From a phage, in sequence record PZ386957.1: 64,000 nt of DNA, one strand, 5' to 3'. This document shows, piece by piece, positions 1 through 64,000 of this stretch. A program made the position numbers and the translations under genes. The stretch's first letter is position 1; each line of letters starts with the position of its first letter. The notes beneath the pieces are model-generated. The model was not told the DNA's origin and searched no databases. It worked only from the letters and a program-made list of their open reading frames with translations.

Positions 1-163
1 CCCAATCAAATTTTTCTGATAAAGAAACCTGTAGACCTGTTTGCATGTCCAGCATCACCTGAAACGGATCTTTACCGTCCATAATCGCACCATGATAAGC
101 GGCGATTGCCGCATCGAGATCTTTTTCGTTAACCAGTTTAGCGCAAGAATTAAATTCTGACAT
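1..163 (-). CDS. hypothetical protein, 5' part only (gene runs off the window edge)
   Basis: ATG at 163 preceded by GAGGTG Shine-Dalgarno; frame open to position 1; same orientation as and downstream of the primase gene. Confidence 0.5.
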   Translation of the reverse strand, partial: MSEFNSCAKLVNEKDLDAAIAAYHGAIMDGKDPFQVMLDMQTGLQVSLSEKFDW

Positions 164-5940: not shown

Positions 5941-7380
5941 TTAAATGTCAAACAGGTCCGTAAGCGATGCCACTTTTTCATATTGCAGCTTTGCAGCCGT
6001 GGTAATGTTCTCCAGTGGTTTGACGAAAGTCTTATTGAACAACAAAGACCAGTCCAACCACTTTAACACCTCTGATTCAATTTCTGGAGGAATACGAGTA
6101 CCAGACAACCAACCAAAACAGATTTCTCCAAACGGATTTCGATCTTTGAGCGGTACGATCATAACTTTCTCGCCCTCACGAATCGGATCTAGTCCAAATT
6201 TTCGAGCATTACGATTATAACACAATACGCTCTTAACCGCATACGGACAGCCCTTAATCGGATACCCGTTTGAATCGCTGTATTTCTGTAGGTTGTTTGC
6301 AGATGATACCGCAGCAACCTCAAGATAGTCAAGTTTTCTAAATTCTTGCTCAAAAATACCGTAGTATTCCTGCAATGACTCTTCACCTTCCTGCAACATA
6401 CGACGAATACATTCTTTCAGTGATTTCTGACATGCTTTAGGTGTAGAACTACGTTGCGTTTCTAAGCCCATGATTTTTAGCTTAGGTTCAGCAAAGCGAG
6501 TTCCTTCCATATCCCAAACATTAAGAGCATAACGCTTTTTACCAGTCCAGAATCCACCGATACCCGCAGATTTCAACGGAGGACCAGCAATTGCCTCACG
6601 GTCCATAAACATCAAGTGCTCATAGTTGTTCATGTACTCGCATAACTCGCGATATCCCTTGTCGATAATAGGTTCCATTCGATGTTTACCGAAATTATCA
6701 AGGAAGTCAACAAGTTTTTCGGTATCGTCGAAACGGTCTTCCCCACCAACCTTATCAACAACATTGTTAACCAGCACATAAACGGAGTCAGTATCACAAT
6801 AACGAACATATGCAAAATCGGTTGTTCCGCAAAGTTCGTTTAAGTATTCGTTAATCTTACGCTCAATCCACTGAATTGCAAGCTGACCGAACAAAGTGAT
6901 CGCACTAGCATTACGCAGATCATACAAACGAAATTTCGGATTTCCTACATATTTTCAATGAGTCGCGCAACCAACTCACCCGCCGTTAGGCTGCTGCATA
7001 TCGCTATGCAGATAAGACTATATCACCTATCAACCGAAGTCAATAGCCCACCATTTCGAGCGCCATTAGCTTGCACCCTACACCGTTACACTCATCACGG
7101 TTAGTCGTTAGGCATTTACAGCATTATAGCTGATTTAGCACGGGATTGTCAACCAGTCCGTATACGTTGATATTCCCCGTTTAGATGGGTTTAAGGTGCG
7201 CTAGGATGTTTACGCACCATAAAGGCTGTTAATCAATACCTTTCGTGAAAGTTGGTTTGTGTTACATAGAATAGACTCGTCTTGACATATCGCTAGATGC
7301 CGTTCTAATTCCTCGATTGGTAACGAATCAAGATAGGCCAATTCTTCATCGGTGAAGTCTTTACGATGATCTATATTCAT
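5941..7380 (-). CDS. 43: DNA polymerase C-terminal subunit gp43B, intron-containing: exon 1 = 7212..7380, group I intron = 6948..7211, exon 2 = 5941..6947
   Basis: ATG at 7380 (AAGGAG RBS) overlaps the HEG stop as ATGA; exon 1 encodes MNIDHRKDFTDEEL...NTNQLSRKVLINSLYGA (motif B KxxxNSxYG); joining U7212 to U6947 reads ...LYGALGNPKFRLYDLRN, colinear with T4 ...LYGALGNIHFRYYDLRN; exon 2 carries motif C YCDTDSVYV; spliced product 391 aa. Confidence 0.82.
6948..7211 (-). ncRNA. group I self-splicing intron, ORF-less, within gene 43B
   Basis: 5' exon end GGUGCGU pairs with intron GCGCACC (P1, U-G wobble at splice site); adjacent intron CCUA pairs with 3' exon UAGG (P10); intron ends in G; internal P/Q/R/S-like elements (CGGGGAAUAUCAACG, AAUCCCGUGC, AACGACUAA, GAUAUAGUCU); two in-frame stops inside. 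Confidence 0.75.
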
Positions 7381-8198
7381 GATATATCTTTCTCCTTAAG
7401 CCGACAATTGTTAAAATGCCAGCGTTTTAAAGACTGTGCAACTCCAGATTTACCGCAATGTGGACATACAGCAATAATTTTCTTGCTTTCTTCCCAGCGT
7501 TTCTTTGCGGCTTCTTTCATCTTTTCTTTAGAGTCGTCAGACATTTTCTTACCTTTCATGCCCTTAACGCAATCTGGATTTTCTGCTATTCTAGCAAGCA
7601 TTCTTTGTCTTTGCAACTCTTTTTTCTCGTCGCTCCACCCTGCGGATATTTTATCACGTTCTTCCTGTGATAGCGTCTTACCAACTTGTTTGTGTGGATT
7701 TTTAGAATAATATTCTTTTAATCCTTTAGCGATCTTTGCCTTTGTATCATCAGAGTGAGATTTGTCAATATCTTTGTTGCTATTATACTTCTCGATGTTT
7801 CTTTTTGAAACGGCATCATAAAATTCTTTGTTTGACTTTCTCGTCTTTTTGATACCGTTAGAAACTTTGACAGCAATTACCGGATTTTTCATCGGGTTAT
7901 TGTCGCCGGAAGTGTCGATGTGATAGAAGCCACCGACACCGCCTAACGTGATGTTATATGTATCAGACCGCTTTAGAAAGTCTTCGTTTACGATCTCGGC
8001 CTCTTTGTCATAAGCGTCTTTCTCGTTATCATATTCAAACAGAATATCTTTATGGAAGTTTTCGACCCCATACTTCGCGATAGCTCGTTTGATATGAATA
8101 CCGCTACCCATATATGAATCATCTGGGTCGTCGGTCTTGTGTACACCAACATAGATCATATTGTTTATCTTATTTGTGATCCGATACACATAATACAT
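7377..8198 (-). CDS. freestanding GIY-YIG homing endonuclease (Seg-like) inserted between 43A and 43B
   Basis: 273 aa; N-terminal GIY-YIG module YVYRITNKINNMIYVGVH, repeated NUMOD3-like S..E.R.KIS segments, C-terminal CPHCGKSG zinc finger; start overlaps 43A stop (TAATG), stop overlaps 43B start (ATGA). Confidence 0.85.
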   Translation of the reverse strand: MYYVYRITNKINNMIYVGVHKTDDPDDSYMGSGIHIKRAIAKYGVENFHKDILFEYDNEKDAYDKEAEIVNEDFLKRSDTYNITLGGVGGFYHIDTSGDNNPMKNPVIAVKVSNGIKKTRKSNKEFYDAVSKRNIEKYNSNKDIDKSHSDDTKAKIAKGLKEYYSKNPHKQVGKTLSQEERDKISAGWSDEKKELQRQRMLARIAENPDCVKGMKGKKMSDDSKEKMKEAAKKRWEESKKIIAVCPHCGKSGVAQSLKRWHFNNCRLKEKDIS

Positions 8199-9685
8199 TA
8201 TTCACCTCGTCGTTTCTTTAACATCTCCTTAATCTTTTCAGCATTACGGTCACACGCCAACATCATGTTTTTGTACTGTTTACGCTGGTCGAACACCTTT
8301 TTGATTTCAATCGGTACTACACCCTGAATATCTTTTCGATACATCCAACCGTTAGGAGAACATGAGTATTCATCGCTAGGCCGTTCCGCTGTTTTATTAA
8401 TATAGTCGATCATTGGCGCGGTGTCAAATGATCCAGCTATAGTTTCCGGCGAAATGTTAACCTGTCGGATGATAGACGGATACAGACTTGTTAAGTCAAA
8501 GCTCATCATCCAACGGTAAGCATTAGGTACTGGTTCTTTTACAAAAGCACCTGGATACGTCTGCTTAGGCTGTATCTTATTTTCCGGTACTACTTTACCC
8601 TCAGCTTTCAGAGATCCGAAGATAATAGCATCCCATACCTTCATCGGGTTATACACATGGTTAAATTTAATCTTTGCATAGTAGCATAGACTATACACAA
8701 GATCGATAAATCCGCGCTTTTTATCAATCGCCAATACACGATCAACGTCGCCGATGTTATAATCGATGTAAAGTTGATGGTTGTCATCACGCAATTTCTT
8801 TAACGGACCATCATAATCAACCTTACCGATTCCTGTCTCATATTCAGCAACATAATCTAATGCATATGTTGGTTGAGTCGTAAAGCTGAATTTCTTGTAC
8901 AGGTCAATGTAATCAAGGCTTTCGATCCCCATGATCGTAAATGCTTCACGCTCGTTGCCAAAATCATCCTGTGAGATTCGGGATTTAATCTTACCGCACG
9001 GGCTTAATCGGTTTGCCGTTCGACTTCCAAACTTATTACTGATACGCTTAATGATATACGGGATATCGAATGTTTCTGTGTTCCAGCCAGTGAAACCAAC
9101 TGGTCGATTTTCCTCAAAGAATCGGATGTATTCTAACAGCAATTCATCTTCCGTATCGTAGACGTTATAAACAACACGCTCTACTATATCAGGTCGAAGA
9201 ATAGACTTTCTTGCTTCCCATATTTCACCGTTTTTGCCTTTCAAATCAAAGACAAAGAAACGATCATGTACGGAATCATAATGCGTAATTGCATCAATAG
9301 GATATTTTGCTTCTTCTGGCTTCGGGAATTCCGGCGCAGTAACCTCAATATCAACCCATGCTACACGGATTTTATTTCGGTCATATCGAATCTCACCCTT
9401 GTATGTGTCGGATAGATAGGAGATGATAAAATCATCCATTCCTAACGCCTCTTGCCCCATCTCTCCCATCTTTTTACGCCATTTGTTGGCCTCGTTCATA
9501 GATGGGAATTTTTTAGCAATGCAAGGCTTGCCATAGATATCTTTATAATTAGTAACCATACCAGGCGCGGCATGATGAAATAAAGTTGGCGTATACTCAA
9601 CGTAACGCTCTTGTTCTTGTCCGGTATCATCAATATAACGCTCGTAGATCTTATCACCTACTCTCTCACATGACAGAAAATACAT
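8198..9685 (-). CDS. 43: DNA polymerase N-terminal subunit gp43A (N-terminal and 3'-5' exonuclease domains, motif A)
   Basis: Start refined to ATG 9685 (MYFLSCERVGDKIYERYIDD vs T4 MKEFYISIETVGNNIVERYIDE); contains FDIPY, YNI.DV, DLTSLYPSIIRQVNISPET; ends with TAA where T4 gp43 continues. Confidence 0.9.
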   Translation of the reverse strand: MYFLSCERVGDKIYERYIDDTGQEQERYVEYTPTLFHHAAPGMVTNYKDIYGKPCIAKKFPSMNEANKWRKKMGEMGQEALGMDDFIISYLSDTYKGEIRYDRNKIRVAWVDIEVTAPEFPKPEEAKYPIDAITHYDSVHDRFFVFDLKGKNGEIWEARKSILRPDIVERVVYNVYDTEDELLLEYIRFFEENRPVGFTGWNTETFDIPYIIKRISNKFGSRTANRLSPCGKIKSRISQDDFGNEREAFTIMGIESLDYIDLYKKFSFTTQPTYALDYVAEYETGIGKVDYDGPLKKLRDDNHQLYIDYNIGDVDRVLAIDKKRGFIDLVYSLCYYAKIKFNHVYNPMKVWDAIIFGSLKAEGKVVPENKIQPKQTYPGAFVKEPVPNAYRWMMSFDLTSLYPSIIRQVNISPETIAGSFDTAPMIDYINKTAERPSDEYSCSPNGWMYRKDIQGVVPIEIKKVFDQRKQYKNMMLACDRNAEKIKEMLKKRRGE

Positions 9686-9717
9686 AATATAAACTCCTTC
9701 ACTTACGAAAGACACTC

Positions 9718-16552: not shown

Positions 16553-17578
16553 CTAATTTTTTGCGCTATTTACTTCGGCTAAAAGTTCATCAGAAATACG
16601 CTTGACCGCCGCAAGTTCTTCCGGTTCTAGGTTTTGTTCTTCCAGATATTCATAGACCATCTGAATAGTGCTTTTAACCTCAATAACACCAGTTTCCTGT
16701 GATGCGCTACTCTCCAGCTTATGGACCACTTTTAGCTTGTGTACAACGGCCTCTAACGCGCTTTCTAACTTAGTTAACCCATTATCAGCGACCGTTGCGA
16801 TAAGACGCACACTAAGCCCCTTATAGCGTTCTACATCGATTTTATCATCTGACGGGTAAGTGATACGCACATGATAAGTTTTGTCGTTCTGGATAAACTC
16901 TTTTTTGTGTGTATCGGTATCAAATACCCAAAAACCACGCGGATCATTTTCGTCACCAGCCGTTAGTGTGTATGGTGTACCGATATACGTTACGTTACCG
17001 CCATCACTGATAGTATGAAAGTGACCAGAAAACACTTCACGGTATTTCTTGAGGAAGTCCGCGCTATAACCTTCGGATTTTAACCCTTTATAGAAATAGT
17101 AACCGGACAATTCCCAATGACCTACACAATATTCGCTAAATGAATTTTGAATAAACTCTAAAACCTCGGATTTATTGTCATCACAAAACCACGGGAACAG
17201 GTCGAATGATACCCCGTCAAAGCTAACGGTTTCCGGCTTATCAATGACCTTAATGCAATCATACTGGCTTAACACTTCACGCGGTGCGTTAGGCTGGATC
17301 TTGTTTCGTTTAAACATATCATGATTGCCTACCGTGATATAACAGGTGATTCCTGCCTCTTCCAGTAATGGGATGACCTTAGTACGGTTAAATTTCATGG
17401 TTTCATGAGTTATCGCCTTGCGGCAATCAAACCAATCCCCTGTCTGAATCCATGTCTTAATATCATGTTCTTTTGAGTATTCAACCGCTTTCTTGATGGT
17501 ATCAAGAATATAATCATGTACCCACGGATCATCGCCACCGATACCAGTATGCAGATCACCCAAAAGCAAAATTTTCAT
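16553..17578 (-). CDS. 47: recombination nuclease subunit gp47 (Mre11/SbcD-like phosphoesterase)
   Basis: 341 aa; calcineurin-like motifs LLLGDLH, GDWFD, GNHD, GHFH. Confidence 0.9.
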   Translation of the reverse strand: MKILLLGDLHTGIGGDDPWVHDYILDTIKKAVEYSKEHDIKTWIQTGDWFDCRKAITHETMKFNRTKVIPLLEEAGITCYITVGNHDMFKRNKIQPNAPREVLSQYDCIKVIDKPETVSFDGVSFDLFPWFCDDNKSEVLEFIQNSFSEYCVGHWELSGYYFYKGLKSEGYSADFLKKYREVFSGHFHTISDGGNVTYIGTPYTLTAGDENDPRGFWVFDTDTHKKEFIQNDKTYHVRITYPSDDKIDVERYKGLSVRLIATVADNGLTKLESALEAVVHKLKVVHKLESSASQETGVIEVKSTIQMVYEYLEEQNLEPEELAAVKRISDELLAEVNSAKN

Positions 17579-17668
17579 AGTCTCTTCCTCTCTTCGTTTT
17601 CGATGCTCTCACTATATCATAGAAAAATAAAAAGGGAAACCCCTTTCAGAGTCTCCCTTATAAAGCCA

Positions 17669-17956
17669 TTACAGCATACTTAATACCGTTTGACGTGTAC
17701 TAACCCACATAGCGGAAAGCAGTTCTGGAGTGTGTGGCTGTTTGTAGATATCACGTAATTTTCCGATAGCGTAGATATACGCATCACGGTTATCATCGAT
17801 GATAGCTTGTTCAGCCCACCGCTTAAGGCGTGCAATCTCTCGCGAGTTCTTACGCAAGATCTTTTCCGCTTTCTTAGCGGCTTTCGCCTCTAGTTCTGCT
17901 TGTACTTTGTCTACTTCATTCACTACAATCTGGTCATGTTGTTCATCGTAAGTCAT
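17669..17956 (-). CDS. hypothetical small protein
   Basis: 95 aa ORF in the T4 alpha-gt interval; much too small to be a glucosyltransferase. Confidence 0.45.
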   Translation of the reverse strand: MTYDEQHDQIVVNEVDKVQAELEAKAAKKAEKILRKNSREIARLKRWAEQAIIDDNRDAYIYAIGKLRDIYKQPHTPELLSAMWVSTRQTVLSML

Positions 17957-37863: not shown

Positions 37864-40011
37864 TTATTCTCGTCCATTTGTATAGTAGTGTTTGAATCGC
37901 CCATAGCCAGTTTCAATAGACATATCTTTCTGTCGGACAATCGCCCAATAGCCATTGCATGAATCTTGCAAATACAGATCCTTACCTTTTAGGAACTCGT
38001 TAAAGATCGTAATCTGCCAATCATAATAGACGGCATCAGCGAGACTATCCATCCAACCATGTGGATCATCCATCAGTTCGACAAGCTCATCGATAACCCA
38101 ATATGGACACGGGCTAAATTTACCTTTACTAAAATCATTGAACAAGGTAACAAGTTTAACTTCCGGTCGCGGTTCATCCGGCTGCACAGGTCGTTTATTA
38201 ACCACAACCTGTACATATTTCGTATACCCGATGATTTCGCCGGAGTCAAGAGTATCGTTATTGTTCTTATCTGCATAAGCCACAAAACGATAAACACCGG
38301 AATCATTTATTGTTGCATTAGCTTTACGGTAAATCGGCACGCGAGAATCAGCAATAGGTAATTTAACACCAGCTTTGCTAAACTCATAGGTAGGTACATA
38401 ATCAGCCGGAGGCTTCAACATGGTAGCCTCAAGAACAAGCGGTTCACCTTCCGTAATCTGTACCGGATGCGGACCATCAAATTCCATATTAGGCACTACC
38501 TCAACATGGTAGGTAGCGCGTGCTGCAATATCGTAATCGGTATGCGCACTATATGGATCTTTACTCGGACTATCGCGGTATTCATGCGACCAGATACCGT
38601 TATGGTCTCGGTCTGCGGAATCAGTGATCTTATACTCTTTCGCTTCAATAGGCAAATCTGCGACTTTAACATCATTTTTCAGAATTACTAATGAACGCGT
38701 TTGAGTCGGATCACCGCTTGCTGGCGGTTCTGGATCGACGATCTTAATTACAATCGGTTCACCAATCTCAATATTACGATAATCATATTCTTTATCGTAA
38801 ATGTCAAGCATACGGCGGTCATAGAACAAAGGACGTCCGGTCGGTGTTCTCTGCGGATCATCATCACGCGCGGGAGCCACCAACAGTTGAAGTGCTACGC
38901 TATCGTCATATTGCAATTCATTAAGCGTAATGCGGTCATATCCCGGATCACCGTATTTCTTGCTTTGGAGTTGCTTACCGCCTAGCATCCACGTAAAGTA
39001 AACATTATTTGCAAGCATACCATAATGGCGGTTCCATGAGTTATCCGCTGGTAATACTGGCATATCAAAGTTTACTTCCGATCCAGAAGGATAACGAAAT
39101 TCGATTGCTGCAAAGTCATTACGGAAAAATTCGTTTTCCTTAACTTTGACAGTAAATCGGTGTCGCTGCCCTTCAATGAATGATTCACCAGCACCAGGTC
39201 CATTAACCACTTTATAGGAGCGAACGCAAGCTACATATTCACCTGCATCATTTTCGGTAGCATGTTTGGTTGCATAGAGTGTTTTGTTGGTAGACTCATA
39301 AACAAGAGTACCGTCGCCACGCTCTAAGCGATACCTTACAATGGTATGCTCTGCGTCATTAGGCGCATCATCTTCTACCGTGAAATAAGCTGGTGCATAT
39401 TTCTGGACATTGAATACTGCGGGATTTTCCTTAATATCGGCAACAAACGGATAAACAAATTTAACGTCGCCGTGTTCGTCGCTCAATTCCATTCGGTAAT
39501 TACCGGAAAATTCAGGCCATGCAAATTTTGCAATTTTAAATTCACGATGGTCTAATCCCAGATCACCATCAATGGAATCAACGAGGCCATTATTATAATA
39601 CAGGTCAACCGAAATATTAGCCGGAATATTACTACGGAAAACAATTTTTGCTTTAATTTCATCACCAATATCAAAAGACGTTGGAGGATGAACATATTCG
39701 ACAAAGACATTATCGAATAAACTAAAGGTAAAGTTTTCCGTGCCGATATCTACGGATTCGCCAGAAAAATTTTCATCATCTTGCGCATAACCACGAAGGT
39801 TAACAGACCATCCGGTTTTATCCTCTTCTTTCACTGAATCCAATACATAGGAAGGAGTTGCAGTAGTCGCAATGACCTTATTGTCTTTCTTCCACGTAAA
39901 ACCCTTTTTAGGTTTAGTTGGTTCAGGGGATTCCCCAGCAAGGGAACAAGCGAAAGTATGAGGAAGCCAAATGGTAGTATTAACGCTAGTATCTTTATTT
40001 TCTACTGGCAT
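37864..40011 (-). CDS. large protein of unknown function with Ig-like-looking repeats
   Basis: 715 aa; repeated D.G.Y.C/F-type motifs (ENDAGEYVACVRS, INDSGVYRFVAYA) suggestive of Ig-like beta-sandwich domains; no signal peptide or catalytic motif recognised. Confidence 0.65.
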   Translation of the reverse strand: MPVENKDTSVNTTIWLPHTFACSLAGESPEPTKPKKGFTWKKDNKVIATTATPSYVLDSVKEEDKTGWSVNLRGYAQDDENFSGESVDIGTENFTFSLFDNVFVEYVHPPTSFDIGDEIKAKIVFRSNIPANISVDLYYNNGLVDSIDGDLGLDHREFKIAKFAWPEFSGNYRMELSDEHGDVKFVYPFVADIKENPAVFNVQKYAPAYFTVEDDAPNDAEHTIVRYRLERGDGTLVYESTNKTLYATKHATENDAGEYVACVRSYKVVNGPGAGESFIEGQRHRFTVKVKENEFFRNDFAAIEFRYPSGSEVNFDMPVLPADNSWNRHYGMLANNVYFTWMLGGKQLQSKKYGDPGYDRITLNELQYDDSVALQLLVAPARDDDPQRTPTGRPLFYDRRMLDIYDKEYDYRNIEIGEPIVIKIVDPEPPASGDPTQTRSLVILKNDVKVADLPIEAKEYKITDSADRDHNGIWSHEYRDSPSKDPYSAHTDYDIAARATYHVEVVPNMEFDGPHPVQITEGEPLVLEATMLKPPADYVPTYEFSKAGVKLPIADSRVPIYRKANATINDSGVYRFVAYADKNNNDTLDSGEIIGYTKYVQVVVNKRPVQPDEPRPEVKLVTLFNDFSKGKFSPCPYWVIDELVELMDDPHGWMDSLADAVYYDWQITIFNEFLKGKDLYLQDSCNGYWAIVRQKDMSIETGYGRFKHYYTNGRE

Positions 40012-55908: not shown

Positions 55909-56385
55909 CTATTTGTTAAGCCCTTTAAACCCGAATACTTTCTTTAATGCATGTTCGGTGATGATCTTAAACTCCATGTTATTTTTCTTACATAGTTCCA
56001 CCGCCGCAGCCCATTTTTCTGTATTCACTGTGTATGTGTAACATTCTTGCATATATCTTTGCTTAGTCTTTGCCGTTATTCGTTTTGGTTTTTGTGGTGG
56101 CATTGTTTCTTTTGCTGGTTTTATTTCCCATAGATACTCCTTACCATCATCAAATTTAACTGCGATATCCATATAATAACGGCGTTTCTTGTTATCGGCG
56201 CTGGACCAGTATGGAATTACTACCGTCTCAGATCCCCACCTAACCACATGTGGATTGCGGTCGAGCCAACGGAAAATGTGCAGCTCCCAAGATGACCGAT
56301 ACGTGATTTTATGAATGTTGGGACCGCGATACTTCTCAGGATTTTCTGGCTTAAATTTGCCCTTGTAAGTGTTAGATCCTCCCAT
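55909..56385 (-). CDS. 4: head completion protein (gp4)
   Basis: 158 aa; position adjacent to and divergent from gene 53 as in T4. Confidence 0.75.
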   Translation of the reverse strand: MGGSNTYKGKFKPENPEKYRGPNIHKITYRSSWELHIFRWLDRNPHVVRWGSETVVIPYWSSADNKKRRYYMDIAVKFDDGKEYLWEIKPAKETMPPQKPKRITAKTKQRYMQECYTYTVNTEKWAAAVELCKKNNMEFKIITEHALKKVFGFKGLNK

Positions 56386-56400
56386 TTTAGCACCCTTTCT

Positions 56401-56408
56401 TATAAATA
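56401..56408 (+). promoter_or_regulatory. T4-type late promoter (gp55-dependent) for gene 53
   Basis: Exact TATAAATA about 30 nt upstream of the gene 53 start codon. Confidence 0.6.
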
Positions 56409-56440
56409 CATAATACTATTTATTAATTGGAGTGCGAAAA

Positions 56441-56995
56441 ATGCTCTTTTCTTTCTTCCCAGCCGTAGAATACAATGGCAAGATGATTACTGACATTGTG
56501 CGAAATTATCGCGCCTACTTTAATTCTATCATCTCAGATTATAATATTCAAACTTATTACATTCAGGGTAGCCCACGACCGGAACAAGTTGCATATGAAG
56601 TATACGGAAATCAGCAATTATATTGGATCTTGTTGATGTTAAATGACGTATATGATCCGTTCCATGACTGGATCACCGATCAGGAGACTGCCTATGAATC
56701 AGCCGAACAGCGTTACTCCCGCGTAGGAGGAAATCAGGTATTATATCACGTTGACATTGACGGAAACAAGTATTGGAACTTAACAGAATATCCGAAGGGA
56801 TCAGAGAACTGGTATGATAAAGGCGATATTCATCACCGTCATTTGCAGTTTCATGGTGCATTGTCGGCAGTCGATACACTAGAAGATGCAATTCTTCGTA
56901 ATGAGGAACGACGCAAGATTAAAATTATCGATCCGACTCAAATTAAACAATTCATTAACGCGTTTATTCGTGAAATGGAAAAGGCTGATGTGTAA
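56441..56995 (+). CDS. 53: baseplate wedge protein gp53
   Basis: Start refined to ATG 56441 (MLFSFFPAVEY vs T4 MLFTFFDPIEY); YYI.GSPRPE, GN.QLYW.LLM.ND.YDP, VGG.Q..YHV, GAL.AVDT, R.IKII all match. Confidence 0.88.
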   Translation: MLFSFFPAVEYNGKMITDIVRNYRAYFNSIISDYNIQTYYIQGSPRPEQVAYEVYGNQQLYWILLMLNDVYDPFHDWITDQETAYESAEQRYSRVGGNQVLYHVDIDGNKYWNLTEYPKGSENWYDKGDIHHRHLQFHGALSAVDTLEDAILRNEERRKIKIIDPTQIKQFINAFIREMEKADV

Positions 56996-57004
56996 GGTGA
57001 TAAC

Positions 57005-58804
57005 ATGTTAATGATTAATAACTCCGTTAAATGGTTTACCGGGATTGTGGAAAACAGGGAAGATCCATTGATGTTAGGACGGTTACAGGTCCGTATTCAT
57101 GGTGTACACCCTTCATTATCCGCTCACGGTGATATACAAGGTTTACCGACCGAAGACCTGATATGGATTACTCCAGTACAAGATATTACAAGCGCGGCGA
57201 TCTCCGGTATAGGCCAAAGTCCTACTGGTATTGTTGAAGGTTCAATGGTATTTGGTTTAGCCTTAGATGAACGTTATTTGAATTGCCTTATTCTGGGGAC
57301 AATTGCAGGACAATATACAGAGCAACCATTAACAACCGAGGGATTTTGTGATCCGTCCGGTGCATATCCTCGCTATATCGGCAACGATGTTAATATTCTT
57401 GCTCGCGGCGGGGTTAATCCATCAACGGGACAAACAACAAAACCTGATAGTGTCTATATTCGAGATGAAAACACTGGAGTTGCCGTAAATCCAGACGACG
57501 AGCCATTAGACCAAATTCCGGTTGACGATAACCCAGAATACACAATAGAAAAAATGTTGCGGGGCGATGAGGGATATCGCGAGAAATGGTATCTTGATTC
57601 AGAAGGATATCCGACAATAGGCATCGGGCATTTGATCATTTATAAGAAAACCAGTGATCTGGGTATTATCAATAATGAACTTTCTAAGCTGGTAGGGCGT
57701 GAAGTTACAAACGGAAGACTTACCGCCGAAGAAGTTAGTAAAGTATTTGCTGACGATATAGAAAAGACTCGTCGTGATATGCGCAAACATCCACGAATTG
57801 CACCTGTCTATAATAAATGTAATGCCTCACGTCGTATGGCATTAGAAAATATGGCGTTTCAAATGGGTGTTGGTGGATTGGGTAAATTTAAGAATAGTCT
57901 TGCTGCAATGCTGGCGGAAGAATGGAAACAAGCCTATGATGGATTACGTCAATCTGTATGGGCTAATCAAACTCCAGGACGCTCCAGCCGTGTTTCTAAA
58001 ATTATTTTAACTGGTAACTTAGAATCATATGGCGTAATTGCTCCAAAGAAAGAGGAATCAATTTCGGATGATCCGCGAGCACGTTTAAGAAATGCCCGTA
58101 TTGCTGCCTATAAGACACAGAGAGCAGAAGAAGACCCAGAAGCACCGTTTACCCCACAAGACACACGAATCATGTTTAAAGAGCCTAAGAGTTCGTATTC
58201 TGCAAGGTATCCTTATAACCATGTGTACGAGTCAGAGAGCGGTCATATTATCGAGATTGATGATACTCCTTCTCATGAGCGATATCATCGTAAACATCCT
58301 TCTGGTACATTTGAAGAAACCAGACCGGACGGAACGAGGGTAGAAAAGATTGAAGGCGATGACTATTTGATCGTTAAACAAGGCCGGAAAGTAAACGTTA
58401 AGGGTAATTTGCAAGTTGTTGTTGAAGGTGACGCGCAAGTTTATTATATGGGTAATGTTATGCAAACCGTTGATGGTAACGTCACTGAATTTATTCGTGG
58501 CAATGTTAATCAGACCGTTGAAGGCACTGCTAACATGCATGTTGTCGGTGATGTTATCGCACAGCTTGACGCTAATTTGACGGCTAATGTCAAGGGTAAT
58601 GCTGAATTAATGATCGAGGGTAACACTACAGAGACAATTAAAGGTAACTATGATTTAACCGTTGAGGGTAATTTTAATATGACCGTCAATGGCACTAAAT
58701 CAGATCAGGTTAATGGTGACTGGTCCCGTAATTGTGGTGCAAGCGTTAAAGATATTGCATCTGGTACAGTTAAAATTGATGGTAGCCGTATTGATCTTGG
58801 GTGA
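57005..58804 (+). CDS. 5: baseplate hub/central spike with lysozyme domain (gp5)
   Basis: 599 aa; internal T4-lysozyme-like DSEGYPTIGIGHLI; C-terminal beta-helix repeats (VEGN...VKGN...). Confidence 0.9.
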   Translation: MLMINNSVKWFTGIVENREDPLMLGRLQVRIHGVHPSLSAHGDIQGLPTEDLIWITPVQDITSAAISGIGQSPTGIVEGSMVFGLALDERYLNCLILGTIAGQYTEQPLTTEGFCDPSGAYPRYIGNDVNILARGGVNPSTGQTTKPDSVYIRDENTGVAVNPDDEPLDQIPVDDNPEYTIEKMLRGDEGYREKWYLDSEGYPTIGIGHLIIYKKTSDLGIINNELSKLVGREVTNGRLTAEEVSKVFADDIEKTRRDMRKHPRIAPVYNKCNASRRMALENMAFQMGVGGLGKFKNSLAAMLAEEWKQAYDGLRQSVWANQTPGRSSRVSKIILTGNLESYGVIAPKKEESISDDPRARLRNARIAAYKTQRAEEDPEAPFTPQDTRIMFKEPKSSYSARYPYNHVYESESGHIIEIDDTPSHERYHRKHPSGTFEETRPDGTRVEKIEGDDYLIVKQGRKVNVKGNLQVVVEGDAQVYYMGNVMQTVDGNVTEFIRGNVNQTVEGTANMHVVGDVIAQLDANLTANVKGNAELMIEGNTTETIKGNYDLTVEGNFNMTVNGTKSDQVNGDWSRNCGASVKDIASGTVKIDGSRIDLG

Positions 58805-58812
58805 GGTAACTA

Positions 58813-59379
58813 ATGGTTGAAATTCTTCCGATGAGTTCAAAATTGGAGGATATCAGCGAGCGAGAACTCTTTGAGGTGGTGTTCTCTTATAAAGCAACGC
58901 CACCGGATGCAAATACCACATACACGATTAAAGAGTTTAAGATCAGCGAGTATCGCCCTAATAAGGGCGTTACCGTTGAAGAAACTAAAATATCTGGTGA
59001 GTATCTGGATAGTTTTTCGCTTGGCGCGGATTCTCTTAAATATATAACGAAAGATCGAATTAAAAAATCTGCCGGAAGTTTTGATGATTTACCAGATCCA
59101 ACTACCGCAGATCTATATTATTTTAACGCTCCTACACGTCTACAGGAGGTTTATACTTATAAAGTAACCCTAACCTATATCCAATCTGTTTCAGAGTCTT
59201 CTGGGGGTTCTGGTGAAGGAAATAGTGGTGGTTCCAATAGCCGAGAGGGTGCTGGTGAAACTAATCCGCCTCCGGTAGTAACAGAGCACACAATAGAGAA
59301 AGTTTATACTCAAACCGTTTTTGGAAATTGGGATGTGTGGGCGCAACAACTAAGAGACTATGTACATAGGGGTGTTTAA
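58813..59379 (+). CDS. baseplate-associated protein (gp5.1-like), by position
   Basis: 188 aa ORF between gene 5 and the PAAR-like gene; Gly/Ser-rich linker. Confidence 0.5.
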
Positions 59380-59672
59380 TGGCTGGATTATCATATGACA
59401 AAGCACGAACAACCGGACATGAACAATTTCCACCCACGATAATTAATGCATCACAATCTAAGGTATTCGTTGAAGGTATTCCGGTATTAGTGGAAGGTGA
59501 TTCTATAATTCCACATACACGAACAGTTAAGCCCTATGATACACACGGAGGAACTACCGTAGCCAGTACCCCGAAAGTATTTGTTACCGGAAAGAAAGCA
59601 ATTCAAATGGCAGATCGTATTAGCTGTGGCGATACCGTCGCTATGGCATCTTCTAAGGTTTATATAAGGTAG
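59379..59672 (+). CDS. 5.4: PAAR-repeat spike-tip protein (gp5.4-like)
   Basis: 97 aa; position after gene 5; N-terminus [14 protein letters not shown] resembles recalled T4 gp5.4. Confidence 0.7.
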
Positions 59673-59676
59673 TAAC

Positions 59677-60231
59677 ATGAAAGAAAACGTCATTCATTAC
59701 ACAGAAGAAGACCGTAATTTTTATAACGAACTTCATAATGCTTTCGTCTATGATGATGGTATTCTTTATTGGAAACATACAAGATCGAATCGTATAAAAC
59801 CCGGCGACATTGCAGGTGTGTTATGGACAAACAATAAAACCGGATATTCTAGTTGGAAGATCGGATTTAATGGCAAGAAATATCATCGGTCATTACTGGT
59901 TTATGTTATGCACTATGGACATATACCAACGGCTTCTCAAGTTATCGACCATATAAACAACACATCAACGAATGACAGAATAGAAAATTTGCGGGTCACA
60001 ACCCAGCATCAAAATACTCAGAATAAGTCGAAGGCGAGAAATAAAACCAATGGAAAATACAAGGGTGTGTTTTTAACCAAAAACGGAAGATGGAAAACCC
60101 AGATTGTCGTGAATGGTCGATGTGTTTACTTAGGAACATTTGACTGTGAAGAAACCGCCGCAAAAGAATACAACAAAGCTGCAACTCATTATTTTGGTGA
60201 GTATGCGAAATTGAACGAATTAAGGGTATAA
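59677..60231 (+). CDS. freestanding HNH homing endonuclease with AP2 DNA-binding domain
   Basis: 184 aa; HNH core IDHINNTSTNDRIENLRVTTQHQN; AP2-like YKGVFLTKNGRWKTQIVVNGRCVYLGTFDCEETAAKEYNKAA; inserted between 5.4 and 6. Confidence 0.85.
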   Translation: MKENVIHYTEEDRNFYNELHNAFVYDDGILYWKHTRSNRIKPGDIAGVLWTNNKTGYSSWKIGFNGKKYHRSLLVYVMHYGHIPTASQVIDHINNTSTNDRIENLRVTTQHQNTQNKSKARNKTNGKYKGVFLTKNGRWKTQIVVNGRCVYLGTFDCEETAAKEYNKAATHYFGEYAKLNELRV

Positions 60232-60232
60232 A

Positions 60233-62137
60233 ATGACAAAGCAAAAGATTACACAAATTCCTGATATTTTTAATGCTGCTACATTCGATGAAATTAAAAG
60301 CGCATTAACAGACTGGATGAGAAACCAGGAAGAATTTAAAGATTTTGATTTTAATGGTGCTGGTATTAACGTATTGATGGACTTGCTTGCATATAACACT
60401 CTGTATATTCAGCAATTCGCTAACGCCGCTCTATATGAATCTTTTATCAGAACGGCAATTAAGCGTAGTTCAGTTGTTCAAGCCGCGCAAGATTTAGGAT
60501 ATTTGCCAGCGAGTAAAACTAGTGCATCAACTACTATTATGTTGCACGTATCACATCCGCGAAATCCGGCAAGTATTCGAATCCCACGAGGAACTAAATT
60601 TATTGCAAGTGTGGATCGCCAGACTTCTTACCCATTTGTTACTACAGAAGACGTTGTGAGCGTTTTAGGTTCAAATGGTTTATATACGCCTATGCTTAAA
60701 GTCGCACAAGGTCGTATCGTTAGAACAGAAATGTTATTCGATCCTAAAAAGCAAATTCTGATCCGCGATCCAGATATTGACCGCGCTCAGGTTAAATTGT
60801 GGGTGGATGGTGCTGAATGGAAAGACTGGACACGAGAAAGTATTGTTAATGCAACTGGCGCTAGTAATATTTTCTATATGCGCGAAACCGTAGACGGACA
60901 TACAGAAATTTTCTTTGGTGAAGGTGAATCAACTTTATCTGCTGCTGGCGGTGCACTGGAAGCAAATTATATTGGTGGACTTAAGCCGTCAACTGGTGCT
61001 AATATTGTTATCGAATATATCAGCACTAAAGGCGCGGAAGCTAACGGATCTGTCAATTTCACATACGCGGATACATTGTCATCTATCTCTATTGTTAAAA
61101 TTATTGAGAATCCGACAAATGATCGTGATTATGTCGGTGCTGATGGTGGCGGTGATCCTGAATCAATCGAACGTATTCGTGAACTTGCTCCGGTAATGCG
61201 TGAATCTCAGCGTCGTTGTGTAACTGCTTCCGACTATGAGGCTTTTGTTTCAAGCCGATTTGGTAGTATTGTTCAGGCGGTACAATGTTTCACCGATCGA
61301 GAAAAACCTGGTTATGCTTTTGTTGCTGTTAAGCCTAAATCTGGTTTGCGCTTGACAACTGTTCAAAAAGAAGATATGCGGGATTATCTGGCAAAATATA
61401 ATCTTGCTCCTATCACGCCGAGCATCATTGACCCTAACTATCTGTATATTAAACAGAATATTAAAGTTTCCTATTCAATCAATGACTTGTCAGAATCAGA
61501 GCAGTGGTTGCGCGGTGCGGTTATTGATCAGATTGATGCATACTATACCGATGAAGTGGAAATTTTTAACCAGACCTTTAGTAAGTCTAAAATGCTTGCG
61601 CGTATTGACAAAGCCGATGTTTCTGTGATAGGTTCTAGTGCAGAGATTGAAATGGTGCGTGAAATTGACAATTTCTATAAAGCGCCTATGGCTGGCATCA
61701 AATTTTTAAACCAGTATAAGAGCGGTGTTAAATCAAGTTCGTTTAACTTTGAGAAAGACGGGAAGCAATATCCGATCCACTATGTGAGCACCGAAATGGA
61801 CACCGAAAGCGGATTGGCTAAAATGCTGGTTGGACCATTCCCTGTAGGGGCAACAATAGCATTACCTCATTATGACGGCACTGATTTTGATAAAGAGACT
61901 ATCGAAGGTGCGGATCTTTACTTTGTGGTAGGTGAAGTTGACCATTACAATGATTTAATCTCATGGGATCTGGGTAGACTTAACATTCATTCCGATTTCT
62001 TCACTGGTTCTTATATTGAGTTGACAGCGAAGCCAATCGCTGATAACATCTTTACAAGAGACGGGTCATTGATTGTATTCGAAAATGATCTTCGTCCGCA
62101 GTATACAACTATTAGTCTGGAGGCAATTGCTCAATGA
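60233..62137 (+). CDS. 6: baseplate wedge protein gp6
   Basis: 634 aa; position and size match T4 gp6; stop overlaps gp7 start (ATGA). Confidence 0.88.
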   Translation: MTKQKITQIPDIFNAATFDEIKSALTDWMRNQEEFKDFDFNGAGINVLMDLLAYNTLYIQQFANAALYESFIRTAIKRSSVVQAAQDLGYLPASKTSASTTIMLHVSHPRNPASIRIPRGTKFIASVDRQTSYPFVTTEDVVSVLGSNGLYTPMLKVAQGRIVRTEMLFDPKKQILIRDPDIDRAQVKLWVDGAEWKDWTRESIVNATGASNIFYMRETVDGHTEIFFGEGESTLSAAGGALEANYIGGLKPSTGANIVIEYISTKGAEANGSVNFTYADTLSSISIVKIIENPTNDRDYVGADGGGDPESIERIRELAPVMRESQRRCVTASDYEAFVSSRFGSIVQAVQCFTDREKPGYAFVAVKPKSGLRLTTVQKEDMRDYLAKYNLAPITPSIIDPNYLYIKQNIKVSYSINDLSESEQWLRGAVIDQIDAYYTDEVEIFNQTFSKSKMLARIDKADVSVIGSSAEIEMVREIDNFYKAPMAGIKFLNQYKSGVKSSSFNFEKDGKQYPIHYVSTEMDTESGLAKMLVGPFPVGATIALPHYDGTDFDKETIEGADLYFVVGEVDHYNDLISWDLGRLNIHSDFFTGSYIELTAKPIADNIFTRDGSLIVFENDLRPQYTTISLEAIAQ

Positions 62138-64000
62138 TTAAAGCGCCTAGTGTTACCAGCTTGACAATTGAAAAATTGTCTGCAAATCAGGCGTATATCA
62201 CATGGGATGACGTAGGCGAAAACTTCTTTTATTTTGTGGAGTTAGCCGAAACCAGAACTCAAGACGGGGAGGAAATCCCCGTCGAGGAATTGACATGGGT
62301 CAATCTGGGATATACAGCCGATAATAACTGGTTTGAAGATAAAAACTTATTCCCTGAATATTTTTACAAGTTCAGGGTAGCTGTTGCCGCAGAAGGGTTT
62401 GAACAAAGCAAATGGATCGAAACAGAAGAATTTCAGACATTTGCGACCAATGCTTATAACTTCTCTATGATGCGTGAATTTAATCTCGCGAATGAGTTTG
62501 TTAAACAAAAATTTACTTTGGATAATCGGGATTATATCAAGTTTAATACTGACTTGATTCAAGCGTCATTGATGAAAGAAGATTTTATCTTTAGTCCAGA
62601 ATATGCGAATATTACAAATATCGCCGATAAAATCATTGTAGATGAGAACTTTCATGAGATCCAAGATCACATAGAAAAAGTCTGTACAGACATTAACCGC
62701 ACTATGTTAGCGGAAATGAACGGCGTGCTATATCTCTTCGAACGTTTTCAGCCGATTGTCAAAGTATCCAATGACAAAGGTCAGACATGGAAAGCATATA
62801 AGGCATTCAATGACCGTGTAGGCAATCCAGTTTCCAGAACATGCGTTTATCAGTCTAAGACGACTACTTACGTGCTAGGGTATGACCGTATATTTTATGG
62901 ACGACAAGCAAGCGATACTCGCTGGAGTGCCGACGATGTGCGGTTTAGTGATGATACTATCACATTTGCTAAAATTGGCGATGAGAATGACTTAGGCTTT
63001 GATGTTGAAGTCTTTGGTGTGTTTGCTCGATTGACTGGCGATACCACGAAATACGCCGAAGCAATGGCGTGTAATGACGCTTATTTGTGGGTTGGTGCTA
63101 AAGACATTATCCGTCGTATTCGTCTTACTAATACCCCGGTCGATACCGTGCAAGGATCACCGACTTTCGGGGAGAAGATATTCGATCCTGATGTTATTCG
63201 TGTTACTGGTAATGATAAAGCAGTAATTCAGAAAATGGATGTGGTAGACGGGCAATTATTGGTCTTTGTTACTGGTGAAGTAAAACAGAGATATCAAGAT
63301 CCGACTAAACCGGAAAACGTGATTCCGTCCGAGGATGCTGGTGTATATCTTATGGTTGAAGATGGTCTGTCTTTTATTCGTGTATTCGGGAATACCCCAG
63401 AAGAACGTGAATACATTCAGCACGGATTTAGTAACATGTCAACCAATGGTGATGAGGCGTTTATTAGCCATTATAATCATCATTTCGGGGCAATATTACC
63501 TGATCCAGAAACTGCCGCAAAATATGACGGGTTAAGTGCTGCTGTAAAATATTCTCAGGAGCCAACTTATCTAACTGATAAGAAAATTCATCAAACGACA
63601 TTCCGCGCAAGCTACGATGACCTGCGTATGTGGCAATTAGGACCGCAATCCTATTACAATGAGGCCGATTATACATGGATGCGTCGAAATGGTGTGCGAG
63701 TATGGATCACTAATGATAATAGACCACTGGTTGTTTATCCAGAGGTAGTGTACACTCAGGAAGTAGATCCAACTGGTATTGCTGATGAAAACAGAATTAA
63801 TAAAGAAGTTTACGATAAAGGAACAGTCACCTGCTACCTGAATAATGTTAAATTTGAAGGATTCAAACAATATGCATCCGGTGTAATGTTCCATAAGAAC
63901 ACAGGGGAGATCATAGGATTCTATCAATTTAACTATCGTGTTCGCGACCAAGTTGGTGTATACTGGAAGCCTACTAATGTTGCATTCATCGCAGAATTGC
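62134..64000 (+). CDS. 7: baseplate wedge protein gp7, N-terminal part (continues beyond window)
   Basis: Frame open from ATG 62134 to the window end; MIKAPSVTSLTIEKLSANQAYITWDDVG...YLFERFQPIVKVSNDKGQTWKA...SADDVRFS closely matches recalled T4 gp7. Confidence 0.9.
   Translation, partial: MIKAPSVTSLTIEKLSANQAYITWDDVGENFFYFVELAETRTQDGEEIPVEELTWVNLGYTADNNWFEDKNLFPEYFYKFRVAVAAEGFEQSKWIETEEFQTFATNAYNFSMMREFNLANEFVKQKFTLDNRDYIKFNTDLIQASLMKEDFIFSPEYANITNIADKIIVDENFHEIQDHIEKVCTDINRTMLAEMNGVLYLFERFQPIVKVSNDKGQTWKAYKAFNDRVGNPVSRTCVYQSKTTTYVLGYDRIFYGRQASDTRWSADDVRFSDDTITFAKIGDENDLGFDVEVFGVFARLTGDTTKYAEAMACNDAYLWVGAKDIIRRIRLTNTPVDTVQGSPTFGEKIFDPDVIRVTGNDKAVIQKMDVVDGQLLVFVTGEVKQRYQDPTKPENVIPSEDAGVYLMVEDGLSFIRVFGNTPEEREYIQHGFSNMSTNGDEAFISHYNHHFGAILPDPETAAKYDGLSAAVKYSQEPTYLTDKKIHQTTFRASYDDLRMWQLGPQSYYNEADYTWMRRNGVRVWITNDNRPLVVYPEVVYTQEVDPTGIADENRINKEVYDKGTVTCYLNNVKFEGFKQYASGVMFHKNTGEIIGFYQFNYRVRDQVGVYWKPTNVAFIAEL

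Follow-up and report, generated by a model that had tools for sequence, protein, structure and literature searches.

The open reading frame that separates the late structural genes 5.4 and 6 of this coliphage raises the question of whether it is a mobile endonuclease gene, and, if it is, how it was accommodated in the baseplate operon and which DNA site it would recognize. The DNA analyzed here (hereafter, the window) is a stretch of 64,000 nt of a Krischvirus genome (RB49/JSE group), which is ~86–95% identical at most to any deposited genome. As argued below from sequence comparison and structure modelling, the gene, designated HEG-C, is very probably a freestanding homing endonuclease gene of the HNH-AP2 class located in the Krischvirus 5.4/6 intercistronic junction.

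HNH-AP2 proteins form a class of putative homing endonucleases found in phages, cyanobacteria and ciliates (PMC1524935 and PMC10448857, citing Magnani et al. 2004). The class was described in RB49, JSE and RB43 between 2004 and 2010 (Magnani et al. 2004; Nolan et al. 2006; Petrov et al. 2010; PMC1524935, PMC2993671), and the number of putative HNH-AP2 genes was given as one for RB49, two for JSE, three for RB43 and six for RB16 (PMC2993671, Table 5).

The HEG-C gene and its product

The reading frame was found exactly where the initial annotation had placed it (59677-60231, plus strand, 184 aa), and it runs uninterrupted through 184 codons from ATG to TAA (Table 1). It is freestanding, with its own start codon, stop codon and Shine-Dalgarno (SD) sequence between the stop codon of 5.4 and the start of gene 6. 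The spacing turned out to be tighter than the 5–6 nt previously given: 4 nt (TAAC) separate the gene from the 5.4 stop codon, and 1 nt (A) separates it from the gp6 ATG. No paralogue of HEG-C was detected by tblastn within the window, and no NCBIfam name matched the protein.

Table 1 Location of the features discussed, in the window unless another coordinate system is indicated
Feature	Position	Strand	Basis or remarks
Gene 43 (DNA polymerase) region	5941-9715	-	split into 43A and 43B
Non-coding, ORF-less 264-nt segment in gene 43	6949-7212	-	blastn homology and exon mapping
Freestanding GIY-YIG gene in gene 43	7377-8198	-	Pfam 1.1e-5; phrog_314 1e-46
TATAAATA, T4-type late promoter consensus, upstream of gene 53	56401..56408	+	motif search; putative function
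gp5 hub/lysozyme	57005-58804	+	Pfam and PHROG assignments
gp5.1	58813-59379	+	Pfam and PHROG assignments
Gene 5.4, PAAR spike-tip protein, upstream neighbour	59379..59672	+	Pfam and PHROG assignments
AAGGTAG, SD-like sequence for HEG-C	59666..59672	+	overlaps the new TAG of 5.4; 4 nt before ATG; putative function
564-bp insert relative to genomes without HEG-C	59668..60231	+	ends uncertain by a few nt
HNH-AP2 gene (HEG-C)	59677..60231	+	freestanding ORF, 184 aa; ATG at 59677, TAA ends at 60231
HNH_3 core	HEG-C residues ~72-116		invariant D91, H92, N94, R101, N104, R106, N116
AP2 domain	HEG-C residues ~127-180
AAGGGTATAAA, SD and spacer for gene 6 in the HEG-C 3' end	60222..60232	+	putative function
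Gene 6, baseplate wedge, downstream neighbour	60233..62137	+	Pfam and PHROG assignments
HEG-A	5.1/5.4 junction (7 records)		246 aa, HNH_3, degenerate AP2-like repeats, 28% identical to HEG-C
HEG-B	5.1/5.4 junction (7 other records)		179 aa, HNH_3 and AP2, 42% identical, closest HEG-C paralogue
segC-like gene of Citrobacter phage CF1 (IMG/VR copy)	1881-2501 of the locus		GIY-YIG and NUMOD3
T4 segC, between 5.1 and 5.3	NC_000866 80196-80618		GIY-YIG and NUMOD3

The initial annotation had staked its case on domain searches supporting both HNH and AP2, and the searches did support them. Pfam HNH_3 matched residues 72-114 with 40.7 bits (E=1.8e-10), above its curated cut-off of 24.8 bits, and the PHROG_99 family "HNH endonuclease" matched with 2.5e-48. 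Pfam AP2 matched residues 127-171 with 29.6 bits (E=8.4e-7), slightly under the curated cut-off of 33.3 bits, and PF00847 is flagged "weak" in the precomputed Pfam annotation of the orthologue. The AP2 assignment is upheld despite this score because both sequence and fold match solved AP2 domains. As a single sequence (phmmer), HEG-C matched the solved plant AP2/ERF domains of WRI1 (6.9e-12) and TEM1 (7.3e-8), as well as those of ERF096 and ERF1, and a 19-sequence HEG-C profile matched the structures of WRI1 (4.8e-21), ERF1 (6.4e-8) and I-HmuI (1.6e-6). The AlphaFold (AF2) model (mean pLDDT 85.9, pTM 0.76) was superimposed by Foldseek on the AP2 domains of TEM1, ERF96, WRI1 and ERF1 with a probability of 1.00 and an rmsd of 1.5–2.8 Å, the modelled elements being a three-stranded sheet (131-133, 139-145, 148-155) plus a helix (158-176).

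The N-terminal part of the same model was superimposed on I-HmuI (PDB 1u3e), an HNH nicking enzyme of Bacillus phage SPO1, with a probability of 1.00 over 100 columns (E=1.4e-2). The likeness, established by fold and profile and not residue by residue, covers the N-terminal ~100 residues of HEG-C with the DH…N…N ββα-metal core; I-HmuI differs in being intron-encoded and in its non-AP2 DNA binding. Its DNA-binding modules are helical and helix-turn-helix ones. All the core residues given in Table 1 are invariant among 19 sequences with identity down to 30%, and putative catalytic and metal-binding roles are assigned to this core by analogy with D74/H75/N96 of I-HmuI.

Among the class members already described, RB49p040 (ORF040c) resembles HEG-C in its N-terminal HNH_3 and C-terminal AP2 domains, its length of 184 aa, its host genus and its freestanding location between conserved genes, but the two are only 37% identical over 105 residues. 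Moreover, RB49p040 and other members of the class sit by gene 47 or dam, whereas HEG-C sits at 5.4/6, and the phage homologues of HEG-C, apart from the one in Enterobacteria phage Whisky, are at most 42% identical to it. Judged from sequence and position, HEG-C is a new lineage at a new site, the 5.4/6 junction, inside a known class; no description of an endonuclease gene at this junction was found in the literature searched. At the gene 47/a-gt.4 junction (17575-17670), the window lacks the 565-bp RB49p040 that RB49 carries there, and thus has an empty site for another member of the HNH-AP2 class.

Structure of the 5.4/6 junction with and without HEG-C

In nine genomes with the empty site (JSE, RB49, GEC-3S, G5211, JK32, kaaroe, MIZ6, G2248 and phiS), gene 5.4 ends with …AAGGTATTCATAAAATGA, and gene 6 begins at the ATG embedded in this end. 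Since 5.4 and 6 overlap by ATGA in the relatives without HEG-C, the gene is recognized as a clean 564-bp insert, the boundaries of which are ambiguous by a few nt due to a short ATA(A)AA repeat; the proposed insertion between 5.4 and 6 is thereby borne out by junction comparison. The GC content of the insert is 36.6% versus 40–42% in the flanking genes. The uninterrupted junction of JSE and RB49 reads …GGCATCACCGAAGGTATTCATAAAATGACAAAGC…, and GATACCGTCGCTATGGCATCACCG is a GC-richer stretch. The window junction reads …AAGGTTTATATAAGGTAG-TAAC-ATG…(ORF)…TTAAGGGTATAA-A-ATGACAAAG.

The insertion is accompanied by changes on its left side. The terminal codons of 5.4 are rewritten in all HEG-C carriers from …KVFIK-TGA to …KVYIR-TAG, and a TCACCG to TCTTCT replacement (P92S in gp5.4) is present in six of the seven carriers, the exception being Whisky. 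On the right side, the gene 6 initiation region AAGGG-N6-ATG is reproduced by the last HEG-C codons, and AAGGGTATAAA and AAGGTTTATATAA (59655-59667) form an imperfect direct repeat that corresponds to the former 5.4/6 junction.

A distinct junction, GGTTTATATCAAATGA, occurs in G5211 and G2248, which do not carry HEG-C; for G2248, it is also given as …GGTTTATATCAAATGAC…. This junction has the TTTATAT variant in common with the left flank of every HEG-C carrier, and it may be an ancestral recipient allele or a cleavage-resistant variant.

Occurrence of HEG-C and variation among its alleles

The comparison of the 5.4/6 junction in related phages that the initial annotation had suggested was carried out, and it revealed the insert in only one of 59 related phage records, that of Whisky, the other 58 being without it. 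The junction was likewise empty at 14 of 14 IMG/VR loci recovered via the gp5.4 anchor, and no close relatives of HEG-C were found in the IMG/VR viral contigs. The Whisky orthologue (QZI93984.1, MZ504878; 97% aa and 97.3% nt identity) has the same junction and spacing, and the Whisky locus differs in carrying HEG-A additionally at 5.1/5.4 and in retaining TCACCG in 5.4. A few metagenomic contigs also carry HEG-C; all five recovered metagenomic loci have the identical junction, some with and some without a second HNH gene at 5.1/5.4. Among 5.8 billion clustered proteins, the homologues make up a single 90% cluster of seven sequences, one TPA entry of which is named "HNH endonuclease", and the next relatives are at most 48% identical; the exact protein of the window is absent from a 15-billion-protein collection. 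A homologue in Klebsiella phage Olmo, considered as a same-locus gene of another genus, was rejected, as it adjoins a DNA methyltransferase.

All seven known alleles lie exactly at the 5.4/6 junction with 97–99% nt identity, and all seven are intact. Variation affects 25 of the 555 sites (16 synonymous-type and 9 non-synonymous-type), third codon positions accounting for 17 of the 25, and purifying selection on HEG-C is indicated by these sequences. At the same time, the gene and its flanks are incongruent. Between the window and contig SRR31239419_1720, HEG-C is 99.1% identical, versus 78.9% for nt 1-190 of gp5.4 and 91.7% for nt 1-300 of gp6. The gene is found on three 5.4 5'-haplotypes (JSE-like, HEG-A-linked and phiS-like), and all four combinations of presence and absence of HEG-C and HEG-A exist within 300 bp. 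This incongruence supports transfer of HEG-C; it fits independent site-specific acquisition and also ordinary recombination in a conserved island.

The latter point arises from the flanks themselves. No carrier-specific co-conversion tract was found beyond ~25 nt, nt 191-270 of 5.4 and nt 1-150 of gp6 being ~100% identical in 15 genomes, carriers and non-carriers; over the first 150 nt of gene 6, identity to each of the 14 genomes compared is 95–100%, and in most cases 100%, with HEG-C present or absent. Without such a tract, the similarity of the copies could also reflect ordinary recombination in a conserved island. The ~230 nt beside the junction (59569-59648 and 60233-60382) are ~100% identical in the 15 genomes even at synonymous sites, and the neighbouring sequence differs by 5–22%; this could be due to nucleotide-level constraint or to repeated gene conversion around a nuclease target.

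The lack of a carrier-specific tract is consistent with another history, in which HEG-C is a resident that is no longer mobile or has been domesticated, having entered once and then been passed on by vertical inheritance and ordinary homologous recombination. Its retention would be explained by a dependence of gene 6 translation on it, acquired since, or by a benefit of the protein to the phage, for example in degrading competitor or host DNA or in regulation through AP2 binding. The rarity of HEG-C in the sampled population points the same way, since a gene present in one of 59 records is not obviously spreading, as does the location of the gene 6 initiation signals within the HEG-C 3' end; still, most Krischvirus genomes do without HEG-C, which is therefore not needed for baseplate gene expression. 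Purifying selection would be expected for a domesticated gene too, and AP2 domains act elsewhere as transcription factors (PMC10448857), but the catalytic HNH residues are fully conserved. The combination of strict site-specificity, diverged backbones and three 5.4 haplotypes is also explained more simply by homing, and we regard domestication or immobility as unlikely.

Expression signals

The only exact plus-strand match to the T4-type late promoter consensus in the region 56000-62500 is TATAAATA upstream of gene 53, and the same scan revealed no dedicated late promoter for HEG-C. With this sole late promoter before gene 53, HEG-C is presumably co-transcribed with 53-5-5.1-5.4-6; its expression would be late, like that of the rest of the baseplate operon, and its translation would start from the SD of the gene itself. 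No significant RBS-sequestering hairpin was detected at HEG-C (fold z-score -0.54), and scans for sigma-70 promoters and terminators at the gene gave matches at chance level. T4 mobE and I-TevI have a dedicated late promoter or an RBS-sequestering hairpin.

Proposed homing of HEG-C

From its distribution and anatomy, we infer that HEG-C homes, the pattern being the one that a freestanding homing endonuclease gene is expected to leave in a population. An intronless homing mechanism appears well founded by analogy and by this population pattern. Among the analogues are T4 mobA-E, freestanding HNH-type genes located between conserved T4-type genes, for which intronless homing is established (PMC2993671); these genes have no AP2 domain and are likened to HEG-C by description, not by sequence.

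In the proposed cycle, HEG-C would be transcribed late as part of the baseplate operon, its own SD serving for translation, and the protein, by homology, would bind DNA via AP2 and nick or cut it via the I-HmuI-like HNH domain. The predicted target lies in a co-infecting phage that has no HEG-C, at its uninterrupted 5.4/6 junction (approximately GGCATCACCGAAGGTATTCATAAAATGACAAAGC). It is placed there because carriers differ from non-carriers solely at the insertion point and in the last ~25 nt of 5.4; self-immunity must have its basis in these positions, which are therefore also the likely place of the recognition site. The candidate site is thereby reduced to ~40 bp, and the compared genomes provide presumptive natural alleles of both kinds, cut-site and immune; no mapped cleavage site for any phage HNH-AP2 enzyme was found in the literature searched. 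The break would then be repaired by recombination-dependent replication on the carrier template, with HEG-C copied into the junction, as for the T4 seg/mob genes, for which copying of the gene into its site by break repair is established. The carrier itself would be immune, its site being split and rewritten by the 564-bp insert. Host fitness would be preserved, since 5.4 is intact save for its last residues and the essential gene 6 has a new SD; the sequence arrangement is observed, and its effect is predicted.

Other insertions in the window

The initial annotation had counted three selfish elements in 64 kb, and this count holds, with HEG-C, the GIY-YIG gene and a separate 264-nt insert, the latter two interrupting gene 43. 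Residues 1-489 of the polymerase (97% identical to RB49) are followed by a stop of the reading frame and then by the GIY-YIG gene, and the polymerase resumes at an ATG near 7380. The 264-nt segment starts 165 nt past this restart, directly after …KVLINSLYGA, and the remaining exon is 99% identical to RB49. The start of 43B (RB49 residues 503-557) is 58% identical to RB49, versus 97–99% for the rest of gene 43. None of the 70 related records has either interruption. Homologues of the 264-nt segment were detected by blastn in 469 phage records from intron-rich lineages, in gaps that are non-coding and unannotated, and we consider the segment to be group I intron-like by sequence; in the Rfam search, no group I intron was matched in gene 43, whether the gathering score or E<=1 was taken as the threshold. 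The intron claimed earlier for this gene thus survives as an intron-like insert separate from the GIY-YIG gene, though Rfam does not call it an intron. The arrangement is the same as that of gene 43 of Aeromonas phage 25, the intron of which contains no endonuclease gene and is predicted to rely on a freestanding one (PMC2993671, section 13).

A further, window-specific insert of 2.0 kb relative to RB49 (37864-40011, minus strand) encodes a 715-aa protein, for which only weak matches to Ig_2 (Pfam 1.2e-4) and to Hoc-like head decoration proteins (phrog_1149 6.9e-8) were obtained.

The flanks of gene 5.4 as a site of insertion

The 5.1/5.4 junction, on the other side of the PAAR gene, is occupied in some Krischvirus records by HEG-A or HEG-B (Table 1), and the carriers of HEG-A have a common substitution block at the 5.4 5' end. 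Nucleotide diversity peaks at this junction and the 5.4 5' end (pi 0.14–0.17 vs ~0.04). In the window, the 5' two-thirds of 5.4 (59379-59570) is ~78% identical to most Krischvirus, and the flanking genes 5.1 and 6 are 95–99% identical. The divergent 5.4 allele of the window is partly common to phiS and the SRR23924984 contig, and it carries some otherwise HEG-A-linked substitutions although the 5.1/5.4 junction of the window is empty.

The diversity peak, with ~0.04 as the background level, would be consistent with a target elsewhere, e.g., at the junction occupied by HEG-A and HEG-B (5.1/5.4) or in the 5' half of 5.4, which is variable; the main effect of the enzyme would then be marker exclusion or PAAR gene exchange and not its own insertion. 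The nearest paralogue, HEG-B (42% identity), does occupy the 5.1/5.4 junction, and the cut sites of freestanding T4 homing endonucleases are often some way from the gene that encodes the enzyme (PMC2993671). We nevertheless consider such a target highly improbable, because the 5' allele of 5.4 in the window is common to phiS, in which both junctions are free of endonuclease genes, and because the 5'-end substitutions of 5.4 follow HEG-A and not HEG-C, the only differences that track HEG-C being those at the 5.4/6 junction. The preferred reading thus continues to be homing of HEG-C into the 5.4/6 junction.

Insertions beside 5.4 extend to other genera. A segC-like gene encoding GIY-YIG and NUMOD3 is located at 5.1/5.4 in Citrobacter phages Moon and CF1, Erwinia phage COW86c and Enterobacter phage EnA02. 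Like HEG-C, segC and the segC-like genes (T4, Moon, CF1, COW86c) are freestanding and lie beside 5.4, co-oriented with the baseplate hub operon that contains them; they differ in belonging to the GIY-YIG and NUMOD3 family and in occupying the other side of 5.4 (the 5.1/5.3-5.4 junction). With segC in T4's own gene cluster, a homing endonuclease gene inside the baseplate operon has a direct precedent, and the location emphasized by the initial annotation, though correct, is less unusual than was implied; a gene of this kind is commonplace in T4-like phages. The presence of segC-like genes at 5.1/5.4 in other genera makes the PAAR-gene flanks a recurrent insertion site for unrelated endonuclease families.

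It is tentatively suggested, as a possibility that we hold to be rather doubtful at present, that competing homing endonuclease genes of several T4-like genera use the two ends of 5.4 as a shared landing pad, and that repeated cutting and repair drives the diversity and mosaic haplotypes of the 5.4 5' two-thirds. The users of this landing pad would be HEG-A and HEG-B (5.1/5.4) and HEG-C (5.4/6) in Krischvirus and the segC-like GIY-YIG genes in T4, Moon, CF1 and related phages.

Taken alone, HEG-C matters little, adding one more site and one more lineage to the catalogue of RB49-like HNH-AP2 genes, and its analysis corrects the label "hypothetical protein" under which the Whisky orthologue QZI93984.1 is annotated. 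The 5.4 locus, with HEG-A, HEG-B and the segC-like genes, is a possible compact natural system for endonuclease competition and nuclease-bounded recombination around a structural gene. If the landing-pad suggestion is true, selfish nucleases would shape variation in a host-penetration protein, the PAAR spike tip.
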